Of a DNA stretch of 64,000 bases, positions 6,630 to 30,056 are shown one piece after another. The notes below the pieces were generated by a model, which was not told the DNA's origin, ran no database searches, and saw only the letters and a program-made list of their open reading frames with translations. A program made the position numbers and the translations under genes. The stretch comes from an uncultured Gaiellaceae bacterium (GTDB lineage: Bacteria > Actinomycetota > Thermoleophilia > Gaiellales > Gaiellaceae): contig CAVTXQ010000010.1 of assembly GCA_963738795.1 (NCBI GenBank), forward strand, positions 358,257 to 422,256, given 5' to 3'. Position 1 is the first letter of the stretch. Every line of letters begins with the position of its first letter.

Positions 6630-6633
6630 CGCG

Positions 6634-6849
6634 TCAGTCGAGCACGCGCGTCACGACCTGCTCGTGCGACGCGCGCCACACCTGCAGCAGCAAGTCGAGC
6701 TCGAGCCGCCGCTCCGGCGCGCTCTTCGAGCCGAGGAGCGACACTTCGATTTCGTCCGGCGCGACCTGTTCGGCCACGGTATGAACGCGCTCGCGCAGGA
6801 AGACGAGCAGGCTCGGAACGAGTTCTGGGTCGCTGAGATGGATGCGCAT
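6634..6849 (-). CDS. small hypothetical protein (71 aa)
   Basis: Track ORF 6634..6966, trimmed to the ATG at 6849 (MRIHLSDPELVPSLLVFLRERV...). Lies downstream of the MEDS gene on the same strand. Confidence 0.35.
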   Translation of the reverse strand: MRIHLSDPELVPSLLVFLRERVHTVAEQVAPDEIEVSLLGSKSAPERRLELDLLLQVWRASHEQVVTRVLD

Positions 6850-7027
6850 AGCCGCAGGAGACGCGCCGTCTCTCACCGACCGTAGGCGCATTCGGCTGCC
6901 GGCGCCATGCCTCGAATGGGCAGTTACGGGGATGGACGCCGACGCGGCGGCCCGGCCGGCGTCCATCCCGCCGCGCGCACCCTCTCATGTCGCCCAGCCT
7001 GGCGACAACCAAACAATTGGCCAGCTT

Positions 7028-16023: not shown

Positions 16024-16056
16024 AGAGCGCACGCGGGCTGGGGATAGTGTGCGGGC

Positions 16057-17640
16057 GTGACAGCCCGGACAGCCGTGCTCTCCAAGGGACAGCTCGCCCT
16101 GCTCGCCGAGCACGGCGAGGAGCGCCGCGCGGACGTCGGCGACGTGCTCTTTCGGGTCGGTGACCGACGCTATCCGCTGATCGCGATCATCGAAGGCGAG
16201 GCGGCCGTTCTCGACCAGAACGGTGCGGAGATCAACCGCCACGGCCCGGGTGGCTTCCTCGGCGAGTCGAACCTGCTCTCGGGACAGACCGTCTTCTTCA
16301 CGGCCGTCGTGACCGAGCCGATGCGCTACATCGCCGTCGAGCGTGAGGAGCTGCGAGCGCTCCTGTTCGAGGACACCGCGCTCAGCGACCTGTTGCTCTG
16401 GACCTTCATGGCTCGCCGGGAGGGGCTTCAGGCGCGGGACGGTGTCGGCGTCGAGATCGTCGGGCCGCATTCGTCCGAGGCGACGCGACAGCTCGTCGAG
16501 TTCGCGCGCCGCAACCGCCTGCCGTTCACGTGGCTGGACACCGACCGCCCCGAGCATGCGGAGGGGCTCGCCCGGATCGCCGGGCTCGCGGATGACGAGA
16601 TCCCGCTCGTGCGCCTACCGGGAGGGCCTGAGCTTCGGAATCCCTCCGCCGGCGAGGTGTCCCGGGCGCTGGGCATCGGGCTCGAGCTCGACCAGGCGGA
16701 GACGGTCGACCTGCTCGTCGTCGGCGGCGGCCCGGCCGGGCTCGGCGCCGCCGTCTACGGTGCGTCGGAGGGGCTGGACACGCTCGTGGTCGAGGGCAGC
16801 GCTCTCGGCGGCCAGGCGGGAACGTCGCGGAGGATCGAGAACTACCTCGGCTTCCCGGCGGGCATCAGCGGCTCGGAGCTGACGGTTCGCGCCGTCGGCC
16901 AGGCGCGGAAGTTCGGCGCCCGCATGGCCACGCCGTACCGCGCCGTCGCGCTCGAGCCCGGCGCCGAGCTTCACCTCGTCCGGCTCGAGAGCGGCCAGGA
17001 GATGAGGGCGCGCGCCGTCGTTCTCGCGACCGGCGCCGAGTACCGCCGGCTTCCGATCCCGGAGATCGAGTCGTACGAAGGCGTCAGCATCTTCTACGCC
17101 GCGGGGCCACAGGAGGCCCGGCGCTGCAGCGCCACGCGGGTCGGCGTCGTCGGCGGCGGGAACTCGGCGGCCCAGGCGGCGATCTGGCTCGCCCGCGGCG
17201 GCGCGCTCGTGACGCTCTTCCACCGCCGGGCCGACCTCAGCGAGACGATGTCGGACTACCTGATCCACGACCTCGAGCGCGCCGGCGTCCTCGTCCGAGG
17301 ACGCAGCGAGATCGCCGCGCTGCACGGCGCCGACGGCCAGCTCGAGGCGGCGACGCTCCGCGACGGCGAGCGGATTCCGCTCTCCTCCCTCTTCCTCTTC
17401 CTCGGAGCCGCACCGAACACCGACTGGCTCGGTGGCACGGTCGCGCTCGACGACGACGGCTTCGTCCTCACGGGCCAGAGGGCCGGTGCCGAGGGCATCC
17501 TCGAGACGAGCGTGCCCGGCGTCTTCGCGGTGGGCGATGTTCGCTCGGGGTCGGTCAAGCGTTGCGCCACCGCGGTCGGCGAGGGAGCGATGGTCGTGCG
17601 CTTCGTCCACGAGCGCTTCTCCGCCGACGTCGTCAGCTGA
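16057..17640 (+). CDS. cyclic-nucleotide-binding domain fused to a thioredoxin-reductase-like FAD/NAD(P) oxidoreductase
   Basis: 527 aa. N-terminal cNMP-binding-like segment (GDVLFRVGD...GFLGESNLLSG). FAD motif DLLVVGGGPAGLGAA and NAD motif VGVVGGGNSAAQAA. Confidence 0.85.
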   Translation: MTARTAVLSKGQLALLAEHGEERRADVGDVLFRVGDRRYPLIAIIEGEAAVLDQNGAEINRHGPGGFLGESNLLSGQTVFFTAVVTEPMRYIAVEREELRALLFEDTALSDLLLWTFMARREGLQARDGVGVEIVGPHSSEATRQLVEFARRNRLPFTWLDTDRPEHAEGLARIAGLADDEIPLVRLPGGPELRNPSAGEVSRALGIGLELDQAETVDLLVVGGGPAGLGAAVYGASEGLDTLVVEGSALGGQAGTSRRIENYLGFPAGISGSELTVRAVGQARKFGARMATPYRAVALEPGAELHLVRLESGQEMRARAVVLATGAEYRRLPIPEIESYEGVSIFYAAGPQEARRCSATRVGVVGGGNSAAQAAIWLARGGALVTLFHRRADLSETMSDYLIHDLERAGVLVRGRSEIAALHGADGQLEAATLRDGERIPLSSLFLFLGAAPNTDWLGGTVALDDDGFVLTGQRAGAEGILETSVPGVFAVGDVRSGSVKRCATAVGEGAMVVRFVHERFSADVVS

Positions 17641-17758
17641 CCAGCTGCTCCGCCGATGTCGATTCGCGCGTGGGCCGTTCGTCGTACCGATGAGTTTCGA
17701 ATCGCACTGCCGTCTAACACCGTGATCGACGTCCGCCGTCGCTACCGGAGGTGAGTTC

Positions 17759-18835
17759 ATGTCGAAAACGCTCGTGATCGTCGGGACACGCAAGGGCTGC
17801 TTCTTTGTCGAGAGCGACGAACGGCGGCTCGAGTGGGAGCTGCGTGGCCCGTTCTGCGAAGGGTGGCCGATCTACCACGCCGTCCACGACGCCGACACCG
17901 GCGCGATCTACGCGGCCGGGGCGAGCGAATGGCACGGCGCGAGCGTCTGGCGCAGCCCCGATCTCGGCGAGACATGGACGCAGTCGAGCGAGGGCCTCGA
18001 GTACGGCGAGACCGGGCTCAAGCTCTCGAAGGTCTCGGGCCTGACCGCCGCCCACGGGCGGCTCTTCGCCGGCGCGGAGATGCCCGGCATCTTCGAGAGC
18101 CGTGACCGCGGCCAGACGTGGAAGCTCCTGAGCACGCTCGAAGGACAGCCCGGCAGCGAGGGATGGAACGATCCCGAGAACCAGCCGCCGGGACACCTCG
18201 GCATCCCCGCGATCCTCCCCCACCCCGAGGACTCCGCCCGCTACTGGGCGATCGTCCAGGGCGTCGGCATCTTCGAGACGGCCGACGACGGCACCTCGTG
18301 GACGCCGCGGAACCACGGGTTGCGCGCGGACTGGCCGCTCGAGAACCCCGAGGTCGGCTACTGCGTCCACAAGCTCGTGATGTCGCCGATCGACAACGAC
18401 CGGCTGTACCAGCAGAACCATGTCGGCATGCACCGGAGTGACGACGCGGGACTGACCTGGACGGAGATCTCGGACGGCCTACCGACCGAGTTCGGATTCG
18501 CAGCGGCGGCGCACCCGCACGACCGGGACACGTTCTACGTGATCCCGCTCGATCCCGGCCACGCGCGCTGCATGCCCGACGGGAGCGCGGCTGTCTGGCG
18601 CACGGGTGACGCGGGCTCGACCTGGCAGCGGCTCGACGAGGGGTTGCCGCAGCACGACGCGCACGTCGGCGTCCTGCGCGAAGGGATGACGATCGACACG
18701 CACGACGTGCCGGGCGTGTACTTCGGCACGAGCACGGGCCAGGTGTTCGCCAGCGCCGACGAAGGCGAGAGCTGGCGCGAGATCGCGAGCTACCTGCCGG
18801 GCATCGCGTCGGTCGAGGTCGCGATCGTCGAGTAG
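17759..18835 (+). CDS. BNR/Asp-box repeat beta-propeller protein (annotated in databases as exo-alpha-sialidase-like)
   Basis: 358 aa with GGAGG before the ATG. Repeated S-x-D-x-G-x-T-W motifs (SPDLGETW, SRDRGQTW, TADDGTSW, SDDAGLTW, TGDAGSTW, SADEGESW). Confidence 0.8.
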   Translation: MSKTLVIVGTRKGCFFVESDERRLEWELRGPFCEGWPIYHAVHDADTGAIYAAGASEWHGASVWRSPDLGETWTQSSEGLEYGETGLKLSKVSGLTAAHGRLFAGAEMPGIFESRDRGQTWKLLSTLEGQPGSEGWNDPENQPPGHLGIPAILPHPEDSARYWAIVQGVGIFETADDGTSWTPRNHGLRADWPLENPEVGYCVHKLVMSPIDNDRLYQQNHVGMHRSDDAGLTWTEISDGLPTEFGFAAAAHPHDRDTFYVIPLDPGHARCMPDGSAAVWRTGDAGSTWQRLDEGLPQHDAHVGVLREGMTIDTHDVPGVYFGTSTGQVFASADEGESWREIASYLPGIASVEVAIVE

Positions 18836-18837
18836 CC

Positions 18838-19101
18838 ATGGCCGAGCTCTACCTGCCTTCGACGCTGCGGCCGCTCTTCGCGGGGCTTCCGCGCCACCTC
18901 GAAATCGACGCCGTCACGGTCGACGAGGCGCTCGACCGGCTCGAGGAACGCTGGCCGGGCTTCCGCGACCGCCTCTGCGAACCGGGGCCGGAGCTGCGCC
19001 GCCACATTCACGTCTATGTCGACCGGGAGCGCGCGAAACTCGACACTCCGCTCGAGGCGCGCTCCCGGGTCGACGTGATCGCCGCCATCAGCGGCGGCTG
19101 A
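18838..19101 (+). CDS. MoaD/ThiS-family ubiquitin-like protein ending in Gly-Gly
   Basis: 87 aa. Starts 3 nt after the BNR gene stop. C-terminus ...VDVIAAISGG, typical of sulfur-carrier beta-grasp proteins. Confidence 0.7.
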   Translation: MAELYLPSTLRPLFAGLPRHLEIDAVTVDEALDRLEERWPGFRDRLCEPGPELRRHIHVYVDRERAKLDTPLEARSRVDVIAAISGG

Positions 19102-19111
19102 GCGGCGCCCC

Positions 19112-20812
19112 TCAGCGCGCCGTCGCCGGGCCTGTCCCGTTGCGCAGGAGGCTTCCGCGTCCCGTCGGCCACGGCAGGAGGTTCGTGCCCGAGCCTGGCA
19201 CCCGGAAGACGTCGATGCCGTGGTCGAACGTCGAGAGCACGATCTCGAGCCTGCCGTCGCCGTCCAGGTCGCCGATCGAGGGCGCGGCAGGAACGCCGAT
19301 TCCGTTCCCGTTTCTCCCCTGGCGCGGGAGTCGGATGTCGTGCAGCCGCTTACCCGCAGCGGAAAGCACGACCAGCCGGCCGGAGCCCGGGGCGAGCGCG
19401 TACGTGCCGAAGACGAGCTCGGGCTTGCCGTCCCGGTTGAGGTCGGCGGCCACGACCTCGGAGGCGAACGTCTTCGGGGCGCTCCGGGCGTAGTCGAACC
19501 GCCACAGCCGCTTGCCCGTCGGGCCGACGGCGTAGACGAAGCCGTCGGGCACTGAGGCCACGATCTCCGGCCGCCCGTCGCCGGAGATGTCGACGACCGT
19601 GGGCGCCGGGATCCCTGACGGCGGATACCAGTCCCCGGAGGGTCTCACCGCAGGCTTGCCGGACCGCGGCGGCGTCGTGAAGCCTTGGTGCCGGCGCGCC
19701 GACCGGGAGCCGTCGCCGTACGCGCCGTCGAGCACCATGAACGCGTATCCCTGGGTCTCGTACGGCTCCTTCTGCTCCGCGTTCGGCAGGCCGATCACCT
19801 CGTTCCGGCCGTCGCGGTCGAGGTCGGCGATCGACGGCGGCGAGTCCGTCCACTGCAGCCACATCGTCTTCCGAACGTCGGGCCACGGGCCCGCATGCTC
19901 GTGGTAGTGGCGGGCTTCGACCGCCGGGTCGAGCCAGCGGATGAACTGGCCCCACCCGAGCCGCCGCCCTGCGTGTCGGCTGTCGCGGTTGCGGAACCAC
20001 GGCGAGGCGAGCACGGAGGTGCCGTCGTAGTTGAAGACGTTGATCTGGTGGTTGTCGAAGGTGACCACGATCTCGAGCTGCGCGTCGTCGTCGAGGTTGC
20101 CAATGCCGACGTTCTCGCCGTAGGCGCCGTAGCCGCGGTTGCCGACGCCGTTGAAGTCGGCGTCGTTGCCCTTGCCGCGCAGTCGGTTGTATCGCGGCCA
20201 TGCTGTCACTGGAGCGCCCTTCGGCCGGTAGAGCGAGCCCCGTGCGCCGAAGACGAACACCTGTGCGCCGGTCGGCGAGGTGTTCGTCGTCGTCACGACG
20301 ACCTCGATCCGGCCGTCTCCGTCGAGATCGGCCGCCGCGAGTCCCCGCGCCTCGGGGCATTGGCCCCCGCTGCACGTCGAGGCCGGCCAGCCCGGTTCGA
20401 GACGGAGGCGACCACCGCGGAGCTCGTAGGCAGCCACCGTGCCCTCGTTGCCGCCGACGACGATCTCCTTCCGCCCGTCGCCGTCGAGGTCCGCGACTGC
20501 GCCGGGGGCGTAGACCCGCCCTCTTGTCGCAGTGCCCTTGCCGAGCTGGCGACCCTTCGCGTCGAAGACGAACGTCGAGTAGAAGGGCGCGACGAGCTCG
20601 AGCCGGCCGTCGCCGTTCAGGTCGACGAGCCCGGGTGACGAGAACCAGCCCGTCTCCCCGGTGCTGATGTTGCGCACGAAGCGCGGGGCTGCGACAGCGG
20701 CGGGCACCGCTGTCGGGCGGACGACGGTGCGGTCCGCCGACGCTGCGCTGTCGCGGCTCGAGGGCGCAAACGCCAAGACCAGGAACGCGGCGACGGCCGC
20801 CACGCGGAGCAT
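19112..20812 (-). CDS. secreted FG-GAP/VCBS repeat protein
   Basis: 566 aa with a signal peptide. Repeated D-x-D/N-G-D-G-x-x-E motifs (DLNGDGRLE, DLDGDGRKE, DLDGDGRIE, DLDRDGRNE, DISGDGRPE, DLNRDGKPE, DLDGDGRLE). Confidence 0.85.
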   Translation of the reverse strand: MLRVAAVAAFLVLAFAPSSRDSAASADRTVVRPTAVPAAVAAPRFVRNISTGETGWFSSPGLVDLNGDGRLELVAPFYSTFVFDAKGRQLGKGTATRGRVYAPGAVADLDGDGRKEIVVGGNEGTVAAYELRGGRLRLEPGWPASTCSGGQCPEARGLAAADLDGDGRIEVVVTTTNTSPTGAQVFVFGARGSLYRPKGAPVTAWPRYNRLRGKGNDADFNGVGNRGYGAYGENVGIGNLDDDAQLEIVVTFDNHQINVFNYDGTSVLASPWFRNRDSRHAGRRLGWGQFIRWLDPAVEARHYHEHAGPWPDVRKTMWLQWTDSPPSIADLDRDGRNEVIGLPNAEQKEPYETQGYAFMVLDGAYGDGSRSARRHQGFTTPPRSGKPAVRPSGDWYPPSGIPAPTVVDISGDGRPEIVASVPDGFVYAVGPTGKRLWRFDYARSAPKTFASEVVAADLNRDGKPELVFGTYALAPGSGRLVVLSAAGKRLHDIRLPRQGRNGNGIGVPAAPSIGDLDGDGRLEIVLSTFDHGIDVFRVPGSGTNLLPWPTGRGSLLRNGTGPATAR

Positions 20813-20913
20813 CGCCGAACCCTAACGACCCAACCGGTCGCGGTAGTCGCGTCGTGCCACGAGCACGAGAGATCGGTAACGTTCGATCCGGCCGAGCGGG
20901 GCGTCGCGCCGGG

Positions 20914-20942
20914 CCTGGACCAGCGCCCGGAAGATCACCCGA
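20914..20942 (+). repeat. module-boundary repeat R0 (degenerate)
   Basis: cctggaccagcgcccggaagatcacccga. The 5' block TGGaCCAGCG matches the consensus. Lies between the FG-GAP start and the cupin stop. Confidence 0.5.
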
Positions 20943-20951
20943 CCTACCTTG

Positions 20952-21422
20952 TTACTGACTCGGCGGCAAGTCAAAGCGAGCGATGATCCCGGTGTCGCCG
21001 TCTTCGGGCACCGGACGTTCGGGGTGGCGGGTCGCCACCCATGCGTACCCCTGCTCGGGGTACGCGACAACATCGGGAAATCTCTTCGAGGAGATGGCGA
21101 GCAGGCGAGCCGACTCGTCGGTTGGGTTCGAGAAATCGTGCAGCCCGTCTGGGCCTTCCGGGAAGTACACGACATCTCCGGGCGAAAGCTGCTCTTCGCC
21201 CTCCGGAGTGCGCACGGTGGGTGTGCCGGCGAGGACGAAGAACATCTCCTCGACGCCGTAGTGCATGTGCAACGGGCCTCCTGGTGAGCCTGGCCGAAGC
21301 TCGCGCAGAGAGGCTCCTAGGATGTCCGCTCCAAACCGGTGCCCGAACCACCGCGCGCGCGTCCGATCCTCGTCGTTCACCTCATCCCAGGGTTCTTCGG
21401 CCAGGAAGTTCAAGCGGTGCAT
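20952..21422 (-). CDS. cupin-domain protein
   Basis: 156 aa. Cupin motifs (GPLHMHYGVEEMFFVLAGT...GDVVYFPEGPDGLH). Close paralogue of 26860..27324. Confidence 0.85.
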   Translation of the reverse strand: MHRLNFLAEEPWDEVNDEDRTRARWFGHRFGADILGASLRELRPGSPGGPLHMHYGVEEMFFVLAGTPTVRTPEGEEQLSPGDVVYFPEGPDGLHDFSNPTDESARLLAISSKRFPDVVAYPEQGYAWVATRHPERPVPEDGDTGIIARFDLPPSQ

Positions 21423-21467
21423 GGCTCCTCCGTCTCGAATCGCTGCCGGTCAAGGAGATTATTGGCG

Positions 21468-21495
21468 TGCGCCAATGTGCCGCGATGGCGTCCGA
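21468..21495 (+). repeat. module-boundary repeat R1 (degenerate)
   Basis: tgcgccaatgtgccgcgatggcgtccga, about 17 of 27 positions matching the consensus. Occupies the same position relative to the YciI leader as R5. Confidence 0.45.
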
Positions 21496-21616
21496 AGAAG
21501 TGAGGCTGGATCTGGCCGGACCGATGAGTTCTCGGTGGTTTGTCGGTCTTCATTGCGCGTGTGTCCGCAGCAGGGTGAGATGCGGCCGGAGCAGGCCGCC
21601 GAGAAAGGAGTCGGAG
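21496..21616 (+). promoter_or_regulatory. conserved 5' leader of YciI gene 1
   Basis: Alignable with 25508-25625. Shared blocks are GATGAGTyyTCGGTGGTTTGTCrGTCT and TGAGATGCGGCCGGAGCAGGCCGCCGAGAAAGGAGTC. The hairpin GCGGCC-GGAGCA-GGCCGC (21582-21599) sits just 5' of the RBS. Confidence 0.5.
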
Positions 21617-21958
21617 ATGACGCGGTATCTGATCTCGTTCGATGACGGGGCAATGACGTTTCCCGAGGAGGATCTCCCCGACGTGGCCGAGGCAGCGCAC
21701 GCAGTGGCGCAAGAGGCAATGGACGCAGGCGTTTGGGTGTTCGGCGGCGGGCTGCATTCCCACGAAGACGTGAGCGTGGTGGCCACCGACGGGACGGTCA
21801 CCGACGGCCCATACCCTGAGAGCAAGGCGTACATTGGCGGATTCTCGGTTGTCGACGTTCCCTCACGCGAGGAGGCGCTGGAGTGGGCCGGCAGGATCGC
21901 CGTCGCCTGCCGTTGTGCGCAGGAGGTTCGCGAGTTCGTGCCCGGCTCTACGCCCTGA
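21617..21958 (+). CDS. YciI-like (YCII/DGPF) protein
   Basis: ATG at 21617 after AAAGGAG. 113 aa, MTRYLISFDDGAMTF...GPYPESKAYIGGFSVVDVPSREEALEWA. Paralogue of 25626..25976. Confidence 0.85.
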   Translation: MTRYLISFDDGAMTFPEEDLPDVAEAAHAVAQEAMDAGVWVFGGGLHSHEDVSVVATDGTVTDGPYPESKAYIGGFSVVDVPSREEALEWAGRIAVACRCAQEVREFVPGSTP

Positions 21959-22027
21959 TCACGGCCATCCGCGAGAGGCGGCGGAAGGCGTCTCGCGTTT
22001 CGCCGTTCGCCCACCATCGCCTGCGCC

Positions 22028-22059
22028 AGTGTTCCGGAATAAGGCCAGGGCGCCGCTTG
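22028..22059 (+). repeat. module-boundary repeat R2
   Basis: cgcctgcgccagtgttccggaataaggccagg, in a convergent intergenic spacer. Confidence 0.6.
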
Positions 22060-22177
22060 CCCCGCGTTACGAAGGGCCGCACGATCGAGCGAAGCGCCGG
22101 GTGCGCACGCTGCTATCGCGAGTCCCGCGCGTCCGCCGCAAGGTGGTCTCGAGGACCGCGCTCCGACTTGCGTCGTC

Positions 22178-22909
22178 CTAGTTCCGGCGGGGAACCTTCG
22201 GCCCACCGTCCGCGTGCGTGAGCCACGTCGGAGCGGCTAGCGCGAGCACGCGCCGCTGTCCCTCGGACGCGCCGCTCCCGAGCTCGTCGTACGTGTACGC
22301 GACGTCGCCGCCGATGACGACGAGCCCGTCGGGCGTGTCGACAAGGACGCTCTGGTGGCCATTTGTGTGGCCGGGCGTCGGCAGCAGCCGGATGCCGGGG
22401 AGCACCTCCGCCTCGCCGTCGTGCTCGACGTAGGTCGCACCCGGAAAGTCGACCCATTCGGGCGGGTCATAAGGCGCTTGCAGCTCGAGCCGCTGAACGT
22501 GGATCGGCACACCGGGAAACAGGCGGTTGCCGCCGCAGTGGTCGAAGTGAAGGTGCGTGTTGATGACGCACACGACGTCTCGCGGGATGTTCTCCGGCAT
22601 CGGCACCGGCGCGCCTTCCTCGTCCAGCTCCGGCGTCGAGTCGAGCATGCCGGTGTCGACGAGGACGACACCGTCGGCATGCTCGATCGTGTGCACGTAG
22701 ACGGGTAAGCCCGCGAAGGTAGCCGCGAGGTGAGCCGTAATCGCGTTGGCGGAGAGCTTGGGAACGCCAGTGTCACCCTGGTAGGGCAATTGGTCCTCCA
22801 GATCGCTGGTTGTGGATCGGCCTTCGGCGTTGAGACTGCGATCGGGGACGGAACTCATCTGTCGACGAGCCTTCGACTGGCGGCCCGGGATGGGAATCGC
22901 CGCCTTCAC
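22178..22909 (-). CDS. MBL-fold metallo-hydrolase (lactonase-like)
   Basis: Track ORF of 243 aa with motif THLHFDHCGG. The true start may be the internal ATG at 22858. Confidence 0.8.
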   Translation of the reverse strand: MKAAIPIPGRQSKARRQMSSVPDRSLNAEGRSTTSDLEDQLPYQGDTGVPKLSANAITAHLAATFAGLPVYVHTIEHADGVVLVDTGMLDSTPELDEEGAPVPMPENIPRDVVCVINTHLHFDHCGGNRLFPGVPIHVQRLELQAPYDPPEWVDFPGATYVEHDGEAEVLPGIRLLPTPGHTNGHQSVLVDTPDGLVVIGGDVAYTYDELGSGASEGQRRVLALAAPTWLTHADGGPKVPRRN

Positions 22910-22954
22910 TCAGCAGGGATCGCCATCGGCGCACCGAGTAGCCTCGGCAGTCGG

Positions 22955-22983
22955 TTGGGCCAGCGTTCGCGAATGGCCCCTGA
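22955..22983 (+). repeat. module-boundary repeat R3
   Basis: ttgggccagcgttcgcgaatggcccctga, in a divergent spacer. Confidence 0.7.
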
Positions 22984-23071
22984 AAGCATTGGCGGCAACG
23001 TCCCCCGGGACTACGAACGATCCGCGCGACCGGATTCGCCGCTCCGTCGGCGGATTAGAGTGTCTCGGCCT

Positions 23072-24107
23072 GTGGCCGAACGAGTCCTCACGCTGCGAGA
23101 ACTGAACCGCGCGACACTCGCGCGGCAGCTCCTACTCCAGCGCACGCGACTCTCGCCAATGGCGGTGATCGAGCGCCTCGTCGGGATGCAGGCGCAGTCG
23201 CCGCAGGCTCCGTACGTCGGTATCTGGACGCGCACCACGGGGTTCCGGCGCGGGTCGCTCGAGCGACTGCTCCGGCGGTCCGCGATCGTGAGGGCGACCG
23301 CGATGCGGCAGACGCTGCACCTCGTCACCCCGCGCGACTACGCGCTCATCTGGGCGGCGATGAGCGAGACGAACTTCCCCTGGGAGACGGAGCGGGCGAA
23401 GCAGCTCGCGCTGTCGGTGCGCGCGCTCGCCGCGAACCGACCCGTGACGTCGACGGAAGCGATCGCCCAACTTGAGAGCGAGTACGGCTTCGCCGGCGTC
23501 GATGCGCGCCGCGCCTGGCGGATGGCGCGAGTCGCCGCGCTCATCGTCCACCACCACGAGAGGGCGCTCTGGCAGCCGCGCAACGACCAGCGGTTCGTCG
23601 CGATCGCCGAGCCGCAGCCGCACGTCCCCGTCGAGGCACGCGCCGAGATCTTCCGCCGCTACCTCGCGGCCTTCGGCCCTTCGACGCGCCGCGACATCGG
23701 GGCCTGGAGCAGGATGCGCGTGGCCGAGATCGACGCTGCACTGGAGCTGCTCGAGCCGCTGCGCCGCTTCCGCGACGAGCAGGGCCGCGAGCTCCTCGAC
23801 GTCCCACGAGCGCCGCTGCCGGACGCCGAGGACGCCGGCGCCCGTCCGCTTCCTGCCGAAGTGGGACAACGTCCTGCTCGCCTGGGCCGACCGCACGCGC
23901 GTACTCCCGGAGCAGTACCGGAAGACGGTGATCAAGGTGAACGGCGACGTCGCACAGACGTTCCTCGTCGACGGCTTCGTCGCCGGGATCTGGCGCGTCG
24001 ACGACGGCCGTGTCGTGCTGGAGCCGTTCGAGCCGCTTTCAGCCGCGGCGCGGCGCGAGATCGAGGACGAGGCAGGGCGTCTGGAGGCGTTCCTCGCCGA
24101 GCCCTAG
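23072..24107 (+). CDS. winged-helix DNA glycosylase-like protein (YcaQ/AlkZ family); frame broken near 23835
   Basis: Starts at the GTG at 23072 (VAERVLTLRELNRATLARQLLLQR...GMQAQSPQAPYVG) in the frame of track ORF 22730..24247. The C-terminus (PVRFLPKWDNVLLAWADR...FVAGIWRV...) is in the frame of 23472..24107. Confidence 0.7.
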
Positions 24108-24222
24108 TCGCGCTCGGCGAGCAGCCGCTGCATGCGCGCGATCTCGATCCGCTGGCCGTCCTCGACGTTATGCGGTGCCACGCTTCGGATCGTACGCAGC
24201 ACCGGCACAACGTCCATCCCCT

Positions 24223-24254
24223 CGCCTGGGCCAGCGTTCGGGAATGACGCCTGA
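24223..24254 (+). repeat. module-boundary repeat R4 (consensus copy)
   Basis: cgcctgggccagcgttcgggaatgacgcctga, in a convergent spacer. Confidence 0.8.
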
Positions 24255-24505
24255 CCGCGGCGCCTCGGGCGGTCGCTGATCATCGACCGCTACCTAACAT
24301 TCGAGTACCTACCCCGAACCGCCGCCAACGTCGCGCTCGCAAACATCCAAACACAACACCCGGACGCGACCCCGTAACGCAGCCGCGAGGGCCTTACCCG
24401 ACCGTGCCTCGAGTGCGCCGGCCCGCATGCTTCCGCCCGCGTCAACGTTGGCGGGCGGCCCGAAGCGCGCCGCCCGCCATAACTCCTGCTTCCTAGTTCG
24501 GCCTC

Positions 24506-25255
24506 CTACCCAGGCCCGTTCTTCCCGCCGGTGGCGAAGTAACTCACACAGTCGCCCTGGTTCTTGAATCCCAAGCCCAGCAGTGTGGTCCAACCGCCGT
24601 TCTTACAGTCATTCTTGTCGAACGTCTGGGCAAGCAGGCTGAAGTTGTCGAGCTGCAGATGGGCCGGACCCGTGAAGAACTGCGGGATCGTGGCCTTGAC
24701 CTCGACGCGGATCGCCGAGCCCTTGTAGGCGCTCAGGTCGAAGGTTGAGCTCATCGCGCCTGTGTCGAGGTTCATCGTCGCTGCGTTCGCTGTCAACACG
24801 TTGGTCGTCTGCAGCGGAGTTCCGCCACCGCCCGGCTCGACCACAAAGTCGAGTGTCCGGTTCAGAGTCGAACCCCCGAAGTTGAACATATCCCAGCCAG
24901 CACGCCAGTCGAAGGTCAGCGTGGCCCGTACAACAGTCCCCGGTGCCGCGGCAGGAATCGAGACGTCCTGCCAGATCGCAATCGTGTCGGGGCCGCCACC
25001 GTCGAAGCCGCTGTCGGCGACGAAGCTGCCGTTAGTCGGTGCCGTCTGAAACAGCCCAAAGCCCGGCGTGAACCCAGCTCCGCGGACGGCGAGCGGGACG
25101 AACGGGACCGCCATGTCCTGCGTGCCCCAGCCAGTGAAGCCGGTCTCGAAGCTGCCGTTCACGAGCAACTGCTGCGGAGGCGCTGCCAGCGTGGCCGAGG
25201 TGAAAACAGCCATCACCGTTGCACACACCAGCGCGAGACCTGTCACGTACTTCAT
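24506..25255 (-). CDS. secreted hypothetical protein with Cys-containing C-terminal motif
   Basis: Track ORF 24506..25327, trimmed to the ATG at 25255 after GGAGG. Signal peptide MKYVTGLALVCATVMAVFTSATLA. C-terminal motif DCKNGGW...FKNQGDCVSYF. Confidence 0.7.
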   Translation of the reverse strand: MKYVTGLALVCATVMAVFTSATLAAPPQQLLVNGSFETGFTGWGTQDMAVPFVPLAVRGAGFTPGFGLFQTAPTNGSFVADSGFDGGGPDTIAIWQDVSIPAAAPGTVVRATLTFDWRAGWDMFNFGGSTLNRTLDFVVEPGGGGTPLQTTNVLTANAATMNLDTGAMSSTFDLSAYKGSAIRVEVKATIPQFFTGPAHLQLDNFSLLAQTFDKNDCKNGGWTTLLGLGFKNQGDCVSYFATGGKNGPG

Positions 25256-25478
25256 CGTTCCTCCCTTGTTCAAGAGAGATGGAAGGGTCACGGAAAAACG
25301 CGATCCTCCATCGAGTGACTCTGTCACCTGTCAACGCCGCAGTCAACCGGCTTGGCGCGAGAAGAAGGCCCGACGCTGCGTTCGCGGAGGACACCGGCTC
25401 CGGTCCGGACGTCAGGCGTCCTTGGCTGGGCGAGTGCAGCATCAGACCCGACGGGGCTGGGATGGGGATAAGCCTGAG

Positions 25479-25507
25479 CTGGGCCAGCGTTCGGGAATGA
25501 CGCCTGA
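25479..25507 (+). repeat. module-boundary repeat R5 (consensus copy)
   Basis: ctgggccagcgttcgggaatgacgcctga. An 11-bp perfect inverted partner cgtcaggcgtc lies at 25409-25419. Confidence 0.8.
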
Positions 25508-25625
25508 CGAGGTGAACCCGGATCGGCCGGAGCAGCGATGAGTCTTCGGTGGTTTGTCAGTCTCTACCGCGTACGGGCGAGGCTGAGATGCGGCCGGAGC
25601 AGGCCGCCGAGAAAGGAGTCATGAG
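25508..25625 (+). promoter_or_regulatory. conserved 5' leader of YciI gene 2
   Basis: Alignable with 21496-21616. The same hairpin GCGGCC-GGAGCA-GGCCGC occurs at 25590-25607, before AAAGGAG. Confidence 0.5.
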
Positions 25626-25976
25626 ATGACGCGGTACCTGATTTCGTTCCCCAGCGGCGCGATGGACCACATCCCCGCTGAGGAGTTCCCCGCCGTGGGA
25701 GAGGCTGCTCATGCGGTGGTCCAGGAGGCCATGGACGCAGGCGTGTTGGTGTTCGGCGGCGGGTTGGCCGAGAACGTGGATCCCGTCATGGTGGCCGGTG
25801 ACGGGACGATCACCGCTGGCACGTACCCGCAGACCAAGGAGTTCAACGGCGGGTTCACGGTCCTCGACGTTGCCTCTCGGGAGGCAGCCGTGGAGTGGGC
25901 CGCGAAGATCGCGGCCGCCTGCCGCTGTGCTCAAGAGATCCGCGAGTTCGGGCCCGACTCAGCGGTGGGCAATTGA
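25626..25976 (+). CDS. YciI-like (YCII/DGPF) protein
   Basis: 116-aa track ORF, MTRYLISFPSGAMDHIP...GTYPQTKEFNGGFTVLDVASREAAVEWA. Confidence 0.85.
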   Translation: MTRYLISFPSGAMDHIPAEEFPAVGEAAHAVVQEAMDAGVLVFGGGLAENVDPVMVAGDGTITAGTYPQTKEFNGGFTVLDVASREAAVEWAAKIAAACRCAQEIREFGPDSAVGN

Positions 25977-26023
25977 GCGAAGCCCCAGATCGCCCTTCAT
26001 GGCCAAGGCTCCCGACAGACGAT

Positions 26024-26054
26024 CGCCTGGGCCAGCGTGCAGAAGGGGTCCTCG
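26024..26054 (+). repeat. module-boundary repeat R6 (3' half degenerate)
   Basis: cgcctgggccagcgtgcagaaggggtcctcg. The first 17 nt match copy R7 exactly. Confidence 0.55.
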
Positions 26055-26086
26055 TTGTTTGAACCAGAAGCCAGCGTGACAGACTT

Positions 26087-26725
26087 GTGACCATGCGTGA
26101 GCTGCGGCCGGGTGTCTGGCATTGGCAATCGTCGCATCCCGGCTGGAACGAGGAGGAGGAGTGGCCCGAGGCTGTCTCGTCTTATGGGATCGAGCTCGGC
26201 AACGATTTCGTGTTGTTCGATCCGCTCGCCGTTCCCGACGAGCTACGTGAGCGCGCGACCGCCGTCGTCCTGACGGCGCCGTATCACGAGCGCGATGCCC
26301 GTGGACTTGGCCTCCCGGTGCACACGCCGCCGGCGGACACCTGGCAGGACTGGGTCGAGAAGTTCGGCATCGACCCCGACCGCGTGCGCGGCATGGAGAG
26401 TGAGGACCTTGCCTGGCTGCGCGCGGGTGGAGGCGAAGGACACTTTCACGGTCCTGGAGCGTGGCCGTTCGGCATCGACGCGTACGCGGGCCGCGAGGAC
26501 AACGATCTCATCCTCTGGCTCCCGTCGATCGGCGCGATCGTCACCGGCGACTCGCTCTCCGACTTCGGCGACGGACTGGACATCTGGATCGGCGATCGCA
26601 AGCACGTGACGCGCGACGATGTCGTGCAACGGCTGCGTCCGCTGCTCGACCTGCCGGTCGAGCTCGTGCTGCCCGCACACGGCGAGCCGACGGATCGCGC
26701 GGCGCTCGAGCACGTGCTCTCGTGA
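26087..26725 (+). CDS. MBL-fold-like protein with a degenerate metal motif
   Basis: 212-aa track ORF. VVLTAPYHERDA replaces HxHxDH. Later segments (LILWLPSIGAIVTGDS, LVLPAHGEP) resemble the MBL fold. The assignment is tentative. Confidence 0.5.
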   Translation: MTMRELRPGVWHWQSSHPGWNEEEEWPEAVSSYGIELGNDFVLFDPLAVPDELRERATAVVLTAPYHERDARGLGLPVHTPPADTWQDWVEKFGIDPDRVRGMESEDLAWLRAGGGEGHFHGPGAWPFGIDAYAGREDNDLILWLPSIGAIVTGDSLSDFGDGLDIWIGDRKHVTRDDVVQRLRPLLDLPVELVLPAHGEPTDRAALEHVLS

Positions 26726-26761
26726 GCGGTGCCGACAGGATCAGAGGCTCAGGCGACGTGG

Positions 26762-26793
26762 CGCCTGGGCCAGCGTGCCGGAATGTCCCCTGA
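26762..26793 (+). repeat. module-boundary repeat R7
   Basis: cgcctgggccagcgtgccggaatgtcccctga, in a convergent spacer. Confidence 0.8.
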
Positions 26794-26859
26794 GCCGAGC
26801 ACGACGAGGCCGCTCGTGCAGCCTCGTCGGCTCTGCCGCTGGCCGATACAGCCGCGGGA

Positions 26860-27324
26860 TTACTCGATCGGGATCTCGAAGCGCGCGATGATGCCGGGGT
26901 CGCCGCCCCTCGCGAGTAGCTCGGGATCGGGATCGCGCGTCGCCACCCACGCATAACCGGCTTCGGGATAGGCGACGACGTCCGGGAAGCTCCCGGCACT
27001 GATCGCGAGGATCCGAGCGGGTTCTTCCGTGGGGTTGCTGAACGTGTGAAGACCGGCCCGACCCTCCGGGCAGAAGACGAAGTCGCCCGGAGCCAACTCC
27101 TCTTCTCCGTTTCTGTTGCGGAACACCGGACGGCCGCTAAGAACGAGGAACATCTCTTCGGCTCCGAAGTGCATGTGCATCGGCTCGTCGGGCGCGCCGG
27201 GGGCCAGCTCGTACAGCGTTGCTCCCATCCTGGCGTCGTCCGGCCGCCAGAAGATTCGATGCTGAGTTCGTGCGTCGAGGTTCTCTCCGTCCCATGCGTT
27301 GGAGAAGAGGTTCTGACGATTCAT
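26860..27324 (-). CDS. cupin-domain protein
   Basis: Track ORF 26860..27390, trimmed to the ATG at 27324 after GGAGG. EPMHMHFGAEEMFLVLSGR...GDFVFCPEGRAGLH. Its C-terminal half is nearly collinear with that of 20952..21422. Confidence 0.85.
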   Translation of the reverse strand: MNRQNLFSNAWDGENLDARTQHRIFWRPDDARMGATLYELAPGAPDEPMHMHFGAEEMFLVLSGRPVFRNRNGEEELAPGDFVFCPEGRAGLHTFSNPTEEPARILAISAGSFPDVVAYPEAGYAWVATRDPDPELLARGGDPGIIARFEIPIE

Positions 27325-27385
27325 GGTGGTACCTCCGCGTCGCAGCAGTGGCACGCAGCTTGCCCCGAGCCCGCAGTACGGCCTC

Positions 27386-27416
27386 GGCAAGGCCAGCGTC
27401 CGGGAATGTCACCTGA
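27386..27416 (+). repeat. module-boundary repeat R8
   Basis: ggcaaggccagcgtccgggaatgtcacctga, in a tandem (minus/minus) spacer. Confidence 0.7.
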
Positions 27417-27441
27417 GCTCTAACGTGCGCACAGCCCCGGC

Positions 27442-27846
27442 TCAGGTGCGCGGACGGTACTCCGACGGGCCGGCCAACACGACGAGGTACCCATCGGGAT
27501 CGCGCAGCCAGATTTCTCGCTGTTTGGCGTTGGGGTTCACATGCACGTCGCGCTCGACCCTCGCATCAACTTCTCTTACCCGCTTCACAGCCGCATCGAA
27601 GTCAGAAACCTCGAACCAGAGCAGACTGCCGTTGCCGAGGGGAACATCGGGCGATGCAAGAGGGCCGTGATGGTGCTCGACGTCGATGTGGTGCAGCTGC
27701 AGGATGAGTTCCCCACCACTGACGAGTTGCTCGTACTCGTCGCCTCCGTGGGCGCTCTCGGCCTCGAGGATCTGCGCGTAGAACACGCTGGACGCCCGGA
27801 CGTCGCGGACGACGATGAGTGGCTGCGGCCAGACCTTCGTGATCAT
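27442..27846 (-). CDS. VOC/glyoxalase-bleomycin-resistance family protein
   Basis: 134-aa track ORF with a typical paired beta-alpha-beta-beta-beta layout (LIVVRDVRASSVFYAQIL..., REIWLRDPDGYLVVL). Confidence 0.8.
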   Translation of the reverse strand: MITKVWPQPLIVVRDVRASSVFYAQILEAESAHGGDEYEQLVSGGELILQLHHIDVEHHHGPLASPDVPLGNGSLLWFEVSDFDAAVKRVREVDARVERDVHVNPNAKQREIWLRDPDGYLVVLAGPSEYRPRT

Positions 27847-27872
27847 TCAGACAACTGTAAGGCCAGAACTGC

Positions 27873-27904
27873 TGCCTGCGCGAGTGTTCGCGAATACACC
27901 CTGA
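27873..27904 (+). repeat. module-boundary repeat R9
   Basis: tgcctgcgcgagtgttcgcgaatacaccctga, in a tandem (minus/minus) spacer. Confidence 0.6.
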
Positions 27905-27911
27905 GCGCCTT

Positions 27912-28675
27912 CTACATGGAGGGAGTGATGCCGCCGTCGATGCGGATCGTGGTCCCGGTGATCGTGCCGGCGCGGGTGCTTGCGAGGAAGGCGACCAGGT
28001 CGCCGACCTCCTCAGGTGTTGTGAACCGGCCGATCGGTATTTCGGCGATCGTCTCGTCGACGACCGTCTGCGGGTCCGATCCGGTGCGAGCGGCCACGGT
28101 CGCGGCGACACCCGTGGGGCCGAGCCACAACGGCGTGCTGACCGGCCCCGGGGCGACACCGACAACGCGGACGCCGTGGCGTGCGAACTCGTGGGAGAGG
28201 CCGACGGTCAGGTTGTCCATGGCCGCCTTGCCTGCGCTGTACGCATAGATCGAGGTGCTGGGTAGGTGGCCGTTCACGCTCGAGATGTTCACGACCACGC
28301 CACCACCCTCGACGAGGTGCGGGAGCGCCGCACGGGTGGTGCGAATTGCCGTCATCAGGTTCAGCTCGATCACCTCCGCCCAGTGCGCGTCGGATTCGTA
28401 GGCGAAGCCTGTCGACGGACGTCCGCTGCCGACGTTGTTGACGAGGATGTCCAGTGAGCCCAGCCGCACGACCGTCTCGTCGACTGCACGGTCGGCGCCG
28501 CCGGGCTTGGACATGTCCAGTTGAAGGTGCGTGAGACCGGCGACCGCCGGAGGGGCGGAGCGGCTGGTGCCGAGTACGCGAGCGCCCTCGGCCAGCAGGG
28601 AGGTCGCGCACGCGAGCCCGATCCCCGACTCACACCGGTGACCAGCGCAGCCTTGCCTTCCAGACCGAGTTCCAC
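27912..28675 (-). CDS. short-chain dehydrogenase/reductase; frame broken near 28624
   Basis: The N-terminus MELGLEGKAALVTGVSRG (frame of 28370..28675) continues as IGLACATSLLAEGARVLG... in the frame of 27912..28514. Catalytic YSAGK motif present. The break is in a 4-G run where 5 Gs would restore the frame. Confidence 0.8.
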
Positions 28676-28745
28676 GAACCCACCCTAATCCGACTCCGCG
28701 GCACGCGAATCGCGGGCGGCAGCACCGGTCCGTCTCGAATGTGGT

Positions 28746-28777
28746 CGCCTGGGCCAGCGTTCGGGAATGTCCCCTGA
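28746..28777 (+). repeat. module-boundary repeat R10 (near-consensus)
   Basis: cgcctgggccagcgttcgggaatgtcccctga, in a divergent spacer. Its internal ATG is the start of the next track ORF. Confidence 0.8.
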
Positions 28778-29105
28778 GCGGAGGATGACCGTCGCGACGT
28801 CAACCACCGACGATGACTCGGTGGCGATGATTGCTCGTCGATCGGCTCGCGGGTCGGTGGCCGCAGCGGCTGTGGCCGTCGTCGCCGCGCTTTGGGCTCT
28901 GGTGCAGTGGGGCAGCGGGAGCCCGGGTCCTGCGCTTGTCGTGAGCGTGGTCGGCTGCCTCGTTGGGTTCGCTCTTGCGCTGGTCGCTGAGGCTGTCGGG
29001 GCAGACCGTCGCGACCTGAAGCTGGGACTTGCTGGCCTTGTCGGGAACGCGGTGATCGCCGCAGGTTGGGCTCTCGTGGTGGTCGCGGCTTGGATCGGGT
29101 CTTAG
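28767..29105 (+). CDS. small membrane protein (three predicted helices)
   Basis: 112-aa track ORF. The start is uncertain (ATG at 28767 lies inside repeat R10; the alternative is the ATG at 28785). Hydrophobic segments AAAAVAVVAALWALV, LVVSVVGCLVGFALALVA and VIAAGWALVVVAAWI. Confidence 0.45.
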   Translation: MSPERRMTVATSTTDDDSVAMIARRSARGSVAAAAVAVVAALWALVQWGSGSPGPALVVSVVGCLVGFALALVAEAVGADRRDLKLGLAGLVGNAVIAAGWALVVVAAWIGS

Positions 29106-29110
29106 CCACT

Positions 29111-29137
29111 CGCCTGCGCGAGCGTGCTTACGCCTGA
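29111..29137 (+). repeat. module-boundary repeat R11 (shortened terminal copy)
   Basis: cgcctgcgcgagcgtgcttacgcctga. Both ends of the consensus are kept and the central block is shortened. Confidence 0.5.
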
Positions 29138-29147
29138 AGCCCCGCGC

Positions 29148-30056
29148 CTAGACGATCAGCGGCCGGAGTGTGTTCCGCGCCAGCAGGAAGCCGCGCTTGA
29201 CGAGCTCCTCGTCGCCCTCGAAGCGGCGGTCCTCGTGCTCGATCGAGATCCACCGGTCGTAGCCGACGGCGTAGAGCGCCGCCAGGAACCGCGGCCAGTC
29301 GACCTCGCCGAGCCCCGGCAGCCGCGGCACCTGCCACCCCATCCCCGCCGACAACGTCCCGTGCCGGTAGAGGCCGTCGCGCCGGATCTCGAGGTCCTTC
29401 GCGTGGACGTGGAGGATCCGGTCGGCGAAGTCGTAGACGGCGCGCTCGTAGTCGATCATCAGCCAGACGAGATGCGACGGGTCGAGGTTGAGCCCGAAGC
29501 TCTCGTCCGGGATCGCCTCGAACATCTGCTCCCAGATCGCGGGCGACCAGGCGAGGTTGTTGCCGCCCGGCCACTCGTCCTCGCTGAAGATCATCGGGCA
29601 GTTCTCGATCGCGATCTTCACGCCCTGGTCGCCCGCGTGGCGGACGAGGTCGGGCCAGATCCGCGCGAAGCGCTCCAGGTTCTCCGCGAGCGGCCGGTCC
29701 TTGTCGTTGCCGACGAACGTCCCGACCACCTCGACCTCGAGCGCCGCGGCCGCGTCGACGACCTTGCGCAGGTGGCCGTTCACCTCTTCGCGGTGCGCGT
29801 CGTCCGGGTGGAGGTTGTTCGGGTAGTAGGCGAGCGACGAGATCTCGAGGCCGTGGCGGTCGAGGATGTCGCGCACCTCGCCCGCGTCGAACGAGTCGAC
29901 GTCGATGTGCGTGACGCCCGCGTAGCGCCGTTTCTCTCCCCCGCCGCCGGGCCAGCACGCGACCTCGAGCGACTCGAACCCCTCGCTCGCCGCCCAGGCT
30001 GCAACCTCGTCGAGCGAGAGATCGGGCAGCGCTGCCGTCAGGAAGCCGAGCTTCAC
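29148..30056 (-). CDS. sugar phosphate isomerase/epimerase (xylose-isomerase-like TIM barrel)
   Basis: 302-aa track ORF with a GTG start that overlaps the upstream stop (GTGA). Typical ...IAIENCP..., ...LDPSHL... and ...ISIEHED... segments. Confidence 0.85.
   Translation of the reverse strand: MKLGFLTAALPDLSLDEVAAWAASEGFESLEVACWPGGGGEKRRYAGVTHIDVDSFDAGEVRDILDRHGLEISSLAYYPNNLHPDDAHREEVNGHLRKVVDAAAALEVEVVGTFVGNDKDRPLAENLERFARIWPDLVRHAGDQGVKIAIENCPMIFSEDEWPGGNNLAWSPAIWEQMFEAIPDESFGLNLDPSHLVWLMIDYERAVYDFADRILHVHAKDLEIRRDGLYRHGTLSAGMGWQVPRLPGLGEVDWPRFLAALYAVGYDRWISIEHEDRRFEGDEELVKRGFLLARNTLRPLIV

Follow-up and report, generated by a model that had tools for sequence, protein, structure and literature searches.

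A conserved 33-bp site bounds mobile single-gene cassettes in Gaiellaceae and related Actinomycetota genomes

Background

How do small accessory genes come to stand one by one between copies of the same short repeat in a phylum thought to be free of integrons? The question is raised by a region of an uncultured Gaiellaceae bacterium (contig CAVTXQ010000010.1 of assembly GCA_963738795.1, positions 358,257 to 422,256, forward strand), a stretch of 64,000 nt that was analysed as a whole and is called the window below. Between positions 20911 and 29137 of the window, 11 single-gene modules are delimited by 12 co-oriented sites, some of them decayed. An earlier note on this DNA had proposed a cassette-type shuffling locus that uses a site different from attC, the recombination site of integron cassettes. 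Variation at the level of single modules, mapping of the exchange point, and the lack of attC features all support that proposal. Here, we describe a family of such arrays, in which single cassettes move between genomes by exchange at a defined point of a conserved 33-bp site. Site-specific recombination, carried out by a recombinase encoded elsewhere in the genome, is the best-supported mechanism for this array of mobile cassettes and in our judgement probably the true one.

Among systems that accumulate single-gene cassettes and shuffle them, only the integron is well understood. None of the Actinobacteria genomes analysed by Cury et al. 2016 contained a complete integron (PMC4889954). The same survey describes CALINs, which are clusters of attC sites without a nearby integrase (PMC4889954).

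Results and discussion

The repeat within the window

Repeat finding and a position weight matrix identified eight unambiguous copies of the motif CGCCTGGGCCAGCGTTCGGGAATGwCsCCTGA in the window, with the 32-nt motifs beginning at 22018, 22952, 24223, 25476, 26762, 27385, 27873, and 28746. All eight are on the + strand, so that the constant orientation claimed in the earlier note holds for these copies. Their matrix scores range from 35 to 53, compared with a maximum of -1 over the 108,000 positions on both strands of the 54 kb outside 20-30 kb. The matrix scan found no site in the other 56 kb of the window, and a 13-nt match at 35065-35077, recorded earlier as a partial copy, is at background level. 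The 24-mer of the earlier note, with three or fewer mismatches allowed, has five matches, all on the + strand, where none is expected by chance, and an 18-mer core has six matches in the window.

Twelve copies, one in each spacer, had originally been counted, and this count stands for the eight clear copies only in its full strength. The four further copies (R0, R1, R6, and R11) are decayed; R6 is borderline, and R0, R1, and R11 score no higher than the best chance alignments in this window of 70% GC content. Within the window itself, the sole support for R0, R1, and R11 is their place in the expected spacer. R1 and R6 are best taken, on homology, as genuine remnants of the site, because the same cassettes in two other loci (L084 and L096) carry intact sites at exactly these positions.

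The layout of one site per spacer is as claimed earlier, with a measured spacing of 366-1271 bp, and five genes are on the plus strand and six on the minus strand, as opposed to the constant orientation of the sites. Pfam searches confirmed the cupin, YciI, metallo-beta-lactamase (MBL), AlkZ-like, YciI, cupin, VOC, and short-chain dehydrogenase/reductase (SDR) genes, while the assignments "secreted", "MBL-like", and "membrane" were without a Pfam hit. The GC content at third codon positions (GC3) of the array genes is 0.78-0.86, compared with more than 0.9 in the flanking genes. A role of the repeat simply as promoter or terminator, already doubted in the earlier note, was rejected: the site is found as often in convergent as in divergent and tandem spacers, and its GGAAT is not followed by a conserved -10 element.

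A family of arrays in other genomes

The material used for comparison comprised metagenome-assembled genomes (MAGs) and metagenome contigs, with one genome per bacterial or archaeal species in the genome set. A scan of the genomes with the degenerate 25-mer GCSAGYGTNCSSGAATRNNNCCTGA identified at least 119 eight-kb blocks with the motif among the matches listed, and all family-wide figures on orientation, spacing, open reading frames (ORFs), and match ends given below rest on these blocks. Nearly all of the blocks belong to MAGs labelled Gaiellaceae, Thermoleophilia, Solirubrobacterales, or unclassified Actinomycetes. A few are from bins labelled Chloroflexia, Gemmatimonadaceae, Acidobacteria, and others, and several of these are short contigs that are possibly mis-binned. 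Arrays with up to 11 sites are also present on contigs of 153 kb to 1.7 Mb in MAGs labelled Chloroflexia (L019, L025, and L058); if these labels are true, the system is not restricted to Actinomycetota. Several genomes have at least three separate array loci, and arrays were found in many genomic contexts. The motif has no matches in viral contigs, and a plasmid collection contained no counterpart of it, only distant matches at the gene level.

Rescanning with the position weight matrix revealed up to 11 site copies per 8 kb, all on one strand in 86 of the 87 blocks with at least two copies. The median of the 265 inter-site intervals is 656 bp. Of those not longer than 4 kb (263), 168 contain exactly one ORF, 59 contain none, and 36 contain two to four, and these ORFs run in the same direction as the site in 132 cases and in the opposite direction in 119. 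A comparison of gene family with orientation to the site showed no more than a trend, 26 of 35 being in the majority orientation (p = 0.15). Sites also form co-oriented blocks in the four longer contexts (11-20 kb).

Cassette ORFs (148 searched with Pfam) are enriched in cupins, alpha/beta hydrolases, GNAT acetyltransferases, methyltransferases, YciI, GFA, glyoxalase/VOC, RibD_C, and peptidase S51, and some are large adenylate-cyclase/ATPase regulators. The YciI protein of cassette 6 has more than 6400 homologue clusters in public metagenomes (E <= 1e-20). YciI and MBL-fold genes are paired 10 nt apart as a two-gene unit in loci L200-L209 and in L041 (1655-2839, where they are read as one fused ORF); the window has YciI and MBL genes in separate cassettes, in one case on opposite strands. 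In L029 (4582-5096), L033 (4988-5502), and L038 (1624-2139), a singleton site is followed directly by a gene for an RNase H-like protein of 145 aa, the three genes being 97-98% identical, and an RNase_H/RVT_3 gene (3502-3903) is located at the array edge in L211.

Movement of single cassettes

All-against-all blastn of the loci and the window detected many cassette-length matches (0.5-1.4 kb) between genomes of different species, at 90-98% identity. Of the 11 cassettes of the window, six have counterparts of 90-97% identity in the genomes of other species, where neighbours or order differ. Five of these can be itemised: the YciI_1 cassette (L084, 95%), the AlkZ-like cassette (L099, 94%; L067, 92%), the YciI_2 cassette (L096, 97%; L091, 94%; L045, 93%), the MBL-like cassette (L067, 96%; L084, 90%; L060, 90%), and the cupin_2 cassette (L096 6437-7059, 96%). 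None of the blast matches between the window and another locus covers more than one cassette. The order in L096 is cupin_2 followed by YciI_2, and MBL-like adjoins YciI_1 in L084. The AlkZ-like and MBL-like cassettes of L067 are about 1.9 kb apart with unrelated content between them, where the window has the "secreted" and YciI_2 cassettes.

The ends of the shared segments fall within the site. With its columns numbered from the G of GCCAG as column 0, match ends cluster on the 5' side at columns -15 to -1 and on the 3' side at +20 to +29, none extending beyond. Loci L007 and L095 share 92-95% identity on either side of one site and differ by exactly one site-to-site unit of 302 bp, which is present in L095, whereas L007 has a single site there. 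Module-level variation with breakpoints in the repeat, for which the earlier note had asked, takes several forms: single cassettes shared in different order, a site-bounded indel, an empty locus in relatives, and a sharp exchange point.

The array as an insertion

Relatives of the xylose-isomerase-like gene that flanks the array (76-94% amino-acid identity) are encoded on 80 metagenome contigs, and these have only two stray site hits in about 600 kb. In two of the contigs (L120 and L121), which share 88-90% nucleotide identity with the flanks, window position 29150 is joined to 19103, and an FG-GAP gene is absent together with the array. The junction is a 14-15-nt spacer between two convergent stop codons. 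A third contig (L122) has a different 1.2-kb gene (1269-2450) at the same spot, beside a near-perfect hairpin of about 60 nt (GGGTCAGGTCTTG...CAAGACCTGACCC), and a fourth (L123) is without window positions 16018-29141. The 14-nt spacer of the convergent genes is a hotspot of variation, empty in L120 and L121 and filled differently in the window and in L122.

Position of strand exchange

To map the crossover, the flanking sites of cassettes common to the genomes compared were aligned column by column, initially for 28 and 18 site pairs and, after loci were added, for 50 (5') and 41 (3') pairs. Over the variable columns from -30 to -4, linkage (the proportion of matches) is 0.33 for the 5' site of a cassette, 0.62 for its 3' site, and 0.35 for random pairs. 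The pattern is reversed over columns +2 to +44 (0.76, 0.35, and 0.37, respectively), and the core columns 5, 8, 10, 17, 19, 21, and 22 follow the 5' site as well (0.78, compared with 0.51 for the 3' site and 0.52 for random pairs). Linkage switches between column -4 (3' site 0.88, 5' site 0.42) and columns -1/+2; therefore, about 28 nt of the core travel with the downstream cassette. The exchange point lies inside CC|TGG|GCCAG. A cassette begins with the strongly conserved right part of the 33-bp site (about 28 nt, GCCAGYGTTCGGGAATGWCCCCTGA) and ends with about 20 weakly conserved nt plus TCGCC(TG). If homologous recombination took place anywhere in the repeat, linkage should change gradually over the core; the change observed is a step. 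The terminal site R11 fits this division, its left half, which is the part belonging to the last cassette, being intact and its right half truncated.

Anatomy of the site

Across 375 distinct instances, strong conservation extends from column -8 to column +24 (TCGCCTGGGCCAGYGTTCGGGAATGWCCCCTGA), and weak conservation reaches back to about column -23. The sole internal symmetry is a 9-bp palindrome, CTGGGCCAG, at columns -4 to +4, and the best dyad axis of the site has a mean complementarity of only 0.44. An inverted partner of the core was not found within 160 nt on either side (mean score 13.9-14.0, control 13.6-13.7, n = 363), and upstream, core, downstream, and whole segments fold at the level of shuffled sequence on both strands (mean z -0.24 to +0.30). 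Mutual information across site instances revealed linkage of subfamilies, for example between columns 10 and 17, and no Watson-Crick covariation. An attC-like hairpin is ruled out by the inverted-partner search, the folding of both strands, and the covariation test. Since there is no hairpin, inverted partner, or covariation, the site is a primary-sequence element, most simply read as duplex DNA. A weak consensus hairpin upstream of the site (GGCGAG...CTCGCC) was discarded as well, being unsupported by folding and not visible in the window copies. Rfam at the gathering threshold has no matches in the whole window, the eight strong copies included.

Search for a recombinase

Searches of 54 window ORFs with Pfam and NCBIfam identified no recombinase or transposase family. 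A tyrosine-recombinase signature is absent from the window and from 116 of the 119 blocks; the matches named by the motif scan are in L028 and L082. Clustering of 967 locus ORFs yielded no recombinase family, and there is no recombinase among the top 25 Pfam families of 148 flank and 148 cassette ORFs. Neither IntI nor attI was seen in the window or at 114 array ends, a survey that did not cover whole genomes. In L082, the end of a frameshifted phage-type tyrosine integrase (4328-5160) precedes a high-scoring singleton site of the same strand by about 25 nt; a paralogous integrase is found 2.8 kb away, and no other of the 119 blocks listed shows such an arrangement. L211 has a tRNA-Gly and an integrase fragment at the array edge, and L213 has an IS110 transposase 2 kb from the array. 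No further copies were found by tblastn with the L082 and L211 integrases. A dedicated enzyme, if one exists, is encoded away from the arrays. The reservations voiced in the earlier note (no palindrome, no R''/R' boxes used for crossover, reversed genes, and no recombinase in view) have all held up.

Proposed mechanism and alternative explanations

A cassette carries one gene, sometimes none or two, in either orientation, and each gene presumably has its own promoter. In the mechanism that we propose, a recombinase encoded elsewhere would recognise the asymmetric site as double-stranded sequence rather than as a folded strand and would exchange strands inside the short palindrome. Recombination between two direct sites would release a circular cassette with one reconstituted site, and in the reverse reaction the circle could insert at any resident site. 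Arrays could gain, lose, and reorder modules by such insertion and excision, and cassettes could pass between species. The circularity of the intermediate, the kind of recombinase at work, and the independent expression of the genes are inferred from the patterns described above.

Several observations weigh against this mechanism. The searches connected no recombinase with the site, the 53 upstream and 61 downstream array ends have no recurrent protein family in common, and the isolated integrase fragments (L082 and L211) and the one IS110 transposase (L213) near arrays are not recurrent. The site is without the two similar inverted arms that are typical of simple core sites of tyrosine or serine recombinases. 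The strand of the site blocks switches in three of the four contexts longer than 10 kb (L210, L211, and L213), which implies inversions or arrays seeded independently; such blocks do not arise from the integration of circles alone. The strands of the sites read --- then ++++ in L211 and - ++++++++ --- in L213. A lineage represented by the contigs that encode P0047 (L200-L209) keeps the same genes while its sites have decayed to remnants like GGCAGTGCTCGGCGATGACCCCTGA. Finally, L007/L095 is the single clean indel seen, because the genome set has one genome per species. The gene run in L200-L209 consists of RibD_C, cupin, S51, GNAT, YciI+MBL, YecM, and glyoxalase. Site-bounded variation in these contexts was considered and rejected, the difference between samples being an ordinary internal deletion.

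The lack of a recombinase near any array would also be expected if the 33-bp element had another primary role, such as protein binding or insulation, and exchange were a by-product of RecA-dependent or short-homology recombination without a dedicated recombinase. Near-identity over about 30 bp suffices for rare homologous exchange, and the L007/L095 indel equally fits a deletion between direct repeats. However, the informative core columns co-segregate only with the downstream cassette; therefore, exchanges occur mainly at the 5' edge of the core instead of throughout it. Regulation also leaves the strict co-orientation and the single site per spacer unexplained, and the site occurs equally in all three types of spacer, so we regard this explanation as unlikely. 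It is quite unlikely, too, that the modules are non-autonomous units resembling transposons, each with a conserved left and a weak right end and each inserted beside the end of a resident copy by a transposase encoded elsewhere (HUH/rolling-circle, IS110-like, or similar) to build head-to-tail arrays. The asymmetry of the site, in which one flank of the break has about 28 conserved nt and the other has only about 5-20 weakly conserved nt, fits an enzyme that reads the sequence to one side of a nick; strict orientation within blocks and the IS110-family transposase 2 kb from one array are consistent with this as well. Subterminal hairpins are nevertheless lacking (folding z about 0 on both strands), which argues against IS200/IS605-type and most Rep/relaxase sites, no transposase recurs near arrays, and no target-site duplication is evident except the site itself.

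A divergent integron or CALIN, in which the repeats would be unusual attC sites served by an IntI-type integrase elsewhere in the genome, appears very improbable in spite of one small accessory gene per site, shuffling, typical cassette cargo, and a GTTCGGG in the motif that superficially resembles the R' box. CALINs likewise have no nearby integrase (PMC4889954). The core of the present site has no inverted partner, excess folding, or covariation, its crossover is 7-10 nt upstream of GTT (columns 6-8) rather than at G|TT, and ORF orientation is random (132:119). Its primary sequence is conserved across a whole bacterial class, unlike that of attC, and the large survey of integrons found no complete ones in Actinobacteria (PMC4889954). 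There is scarcely any likelihood that the site is a passive intergenic repeat of the repetitive extragenic palindromic (REP) or miniature inverted-repeat transposable element (MITE) type, spreading by itself with no role in moving genes. Such a repeat would be short, intergenic, and present at many loci per genome, as this one is, but the site is not palindromic, and homology between genomes stops inside it on both sides of single genes whose neighbours differ. The earlier note had named a genome-wide, REP-like distribution as a possible refutation of its proposal; the clustered, co-oriented arrays, the absence of the site elsewhere in the window, and its near absence from the related contigs exclude it. 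Site-specific recombination of cassettes by an enzyme encoded elsewhere thus remains our preferred explanation.

Features of the array and its surroundings

The features of the region are compiled in Table 1. In the damaged site R6, homology to L096 stops at column +7, and the homology of the next cassette to L067 begins at column +13. The terminal site R11 is separated by 10 nt from the stop codon of the adjacent core gene. In this assembly, both the AlkZ-like gene and the SDR gene contain a frameshift, and the N-terminal GxxxGxG part of the SDR is in another frame. These frameshifts may be assembly errors rather than gene decay, and the genes are not necessarily pseudogenes, because housekeeping genes in the window are also damaged: gcvP is split in two (57827-60955), and gcvT (61574-62104) and gltX (46519-47586) are short.

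Elsewhere in the window, positions 932-6966 contain seven small ORFs (110-242 aa) without a Pfam hit, with a GC content of 0.65-0.68 and a GC3 of 0.72-0.83, below those of core genes. It is possibly a further accessory region or the fossil of a cassette region; no site copy is present in it. An exact-identity look-up of the window proteins found none on record.

Table 1 Sites, cassette genes, and the variable segment in the window (positions within the 64,000-nt stretch)
Feature	Position	Strand	Evidence
Segment absent from close relatives (FG-GAP gene and array)	19104..29149		blastn of L120, L121
Whole cassette array, 11 modules and 12 co-oriented sites	20911..29137	+	Repeat finding, matrix scan
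Site R0, decayed, GCCTGGaCCAGCG-CCCGGAAGATCACCCGA	20911..20942	+	Chance-level score, positional support
Cassette 1 gene, cupin	20952..21422	-	Pfam Cupin_2, E = 3e-14
Site R1, decayed	21463..21495	+	Matrix score 12.7; homologous to intact L084 site, 95%-identical cassette begins at column -3
Cassette 2 gene, YciI-like (YciI_1)	21617..21958	+	Pfam YCII; 95% nucleotide identity to L084 5221-5795
Site R2	22017..22049	+	Matrix score 34.6
Cassette 3 gene, metallo-beta-lactamase fold	22178..22909	-	Pfam Lactamase_B, E = 9e-18
Site R3	22951..22983	+	Matrix score 40
Cassette 4 gene, AlkZ-like DNA glycosylase, frameshift near 23760	23060..24107	+	Pfam AlkZ-like in two frames
Site R4, consensus copy	24222..24254	+	0 mismatches to consensus of the earlier note; matrix score 51
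Cassette 5 gene, putative secreted protein	24506..25327	-	No Pfam hit
Site R5	25475..25507	+	Matrix score 47
Cassette 6 gene, YciI-like (YciI_2), paralogue of cassette 2	25626..25976	+	Pfam YCII
Site R6, damaged past column +7	26023..26055	+	Borderline score
Cassette 7 gene, MBL-like	26087..26725	+	No Pfam hit
Site R7	26761..26793	+	Matrix score 42
Cassette 8 gene, cupin (cupin_2)	26860..27390	-	Pfam Cupin_2
Site R8	27384..27416	+	Matrix score 36
Cassette 9 gene, glyoxalase/VOC	27442..27846	-	Pfam Glyoxalase
Site R9	27872..27904	+	Matrix score 35
Cassette 10 gene, SDR, frameshift near 28500	27912..28675	-	Pfam adh_short_C2, E = 2e-39, C-terminal 200 aa
Site R10, consensus copy	28745..28777	+	0 mismatches to consensus of the earlier note; matrix score 53
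Cassette 11 gene, small membrane protein	28767..29105	+	No Pfam hit
Site R11, terminal; left half CTCGCCTG intact, right half truncated CGCGAGCGTGC...TTACGCCTGA	29109..29137	+	

Implications

The chances are about even that Thermoleophilia, and possibly other soil lineages, have a gene-capture platform whose origin is independent of integrons, with autonomous single-gene cassettes in either orientation, a 33-bp double-stranded site, and a recombinase, encoded away from the arrays, that exchanges the cassettes across species. If so, a second and mechanistically distinct form of cassette plasticity would exist in a phylum thought to be free of integrons. The hosts are abundant, poorly cultured soil Actinomycetota, and a large pool of mobile accessory genes (detoxification-type enzymes, acetyltransferases, and hydrolases) would be opened. 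Surveys with IntegronFinder or attC primers would miss such arrays. The 33-bp site could be used as bait for a new site-specific recombinase, and a short, unstructured, directional site could serve as a genetic tool.

Comparison with known systems

The literature was searched, including by the literal motif, and contained no description of this element; our best reading is that the cassette system has not been described previously in the literature searched. Several known systems share parts of its organisation. In staphylococcal cassette chromosome (SCC) composite islands, tandem elements are separated by direct repeats of a short integration site, gene orientation inside the elements is mixed, and some elements rely on an external recombinase. 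SCC elements are multi-gene units of 3-60 kb that use a fixed attB in rlmH and carry their own Ccr serine recombinases. The arrays described here resemble them in having tandem elements with direct site copies between them. However, the present modules are only about 0.3-1.5 kb long, the arrays occur at many loci, no ccr-like gene was seen in them, and there is no fixed attB in a conserved gene, the array of the window lying in the 14-nt gap between convergent genes, which relatives leave empty.

Modules bounded by short sites and moved by a host recombinase encoded elsewhere are also known from Xer systems (pdif modules of Acinetobacter plasmids, and IMEX at dif), and supply of the recombinase from elsewhere would likewise explain why none is found locally. 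The dif-like sites have a length of 28 bp (11-6-11), partial dyad symmetry, and a centre rich in AT; the orientation of pdif sites alternates, and IMEX are located at the single chromosomal dif. In contrast, the site of the cassette arrays is GC-rich, asymmetric (dyad 0.44), co-oriented, and present at several loci per genome. The sfx sites of the shufflon of plasmid R64, recognised by Rci, are asymmetric in a similar one-armed way, with a conserved core and one conserved arm and a variable other arm. They are inverted and drive inversions within one gene (pilV), whereas the sites described here are direct and bound whole genes. The arrays differ from REP elements, bacterial interspersed mosaic elements (BIMEs), and MITEs in that the site is clustered, co-oriented, and non-palindromic instead of occurring genome-wide in both orientations.

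The closest resemblance is to integrons and CALINs. Both consist mostly of single small accessory genes bounded by co-oriented recombination sites, with exchange near one edge of the site, so that one cassette takes most of the site with it. Genomes share cassettes in differing order, the array may be far from the integrase, and the cargo includes GNAT acetyltransferases, glyoxalases, and cupins. However, attC is an imperfect palindrome (R''-L''...L'-R') of 57-141 nt that folds into a hairpin as a single strand, while the present site is an unstructured 33-bp sequence conserved throughout a class; it has no R''/R' boxes, and its crossover is not at the G|TT of the R' box (GTTRRRY). Integron cassette ORFs point the same way as their sites and mostly have no promoter; here, genes run either way at about equal frequency, so that a common Pc promoter cannot serve them. 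The tyrosine recombinase IntI, with attI and Pc, stands at one end of an integron array (though not of a CALIN), and neither IntI nor attI accompanies the present arrays at the ends surveyed. The system works like an integron, yet every molecular hallmark of an integron that was tested fails. It would be categorically new if its enzyme proves unrelated to integron integrases, and if a second cassette system works with a different kind of site, gene capture by cassettes has evolved more than once.

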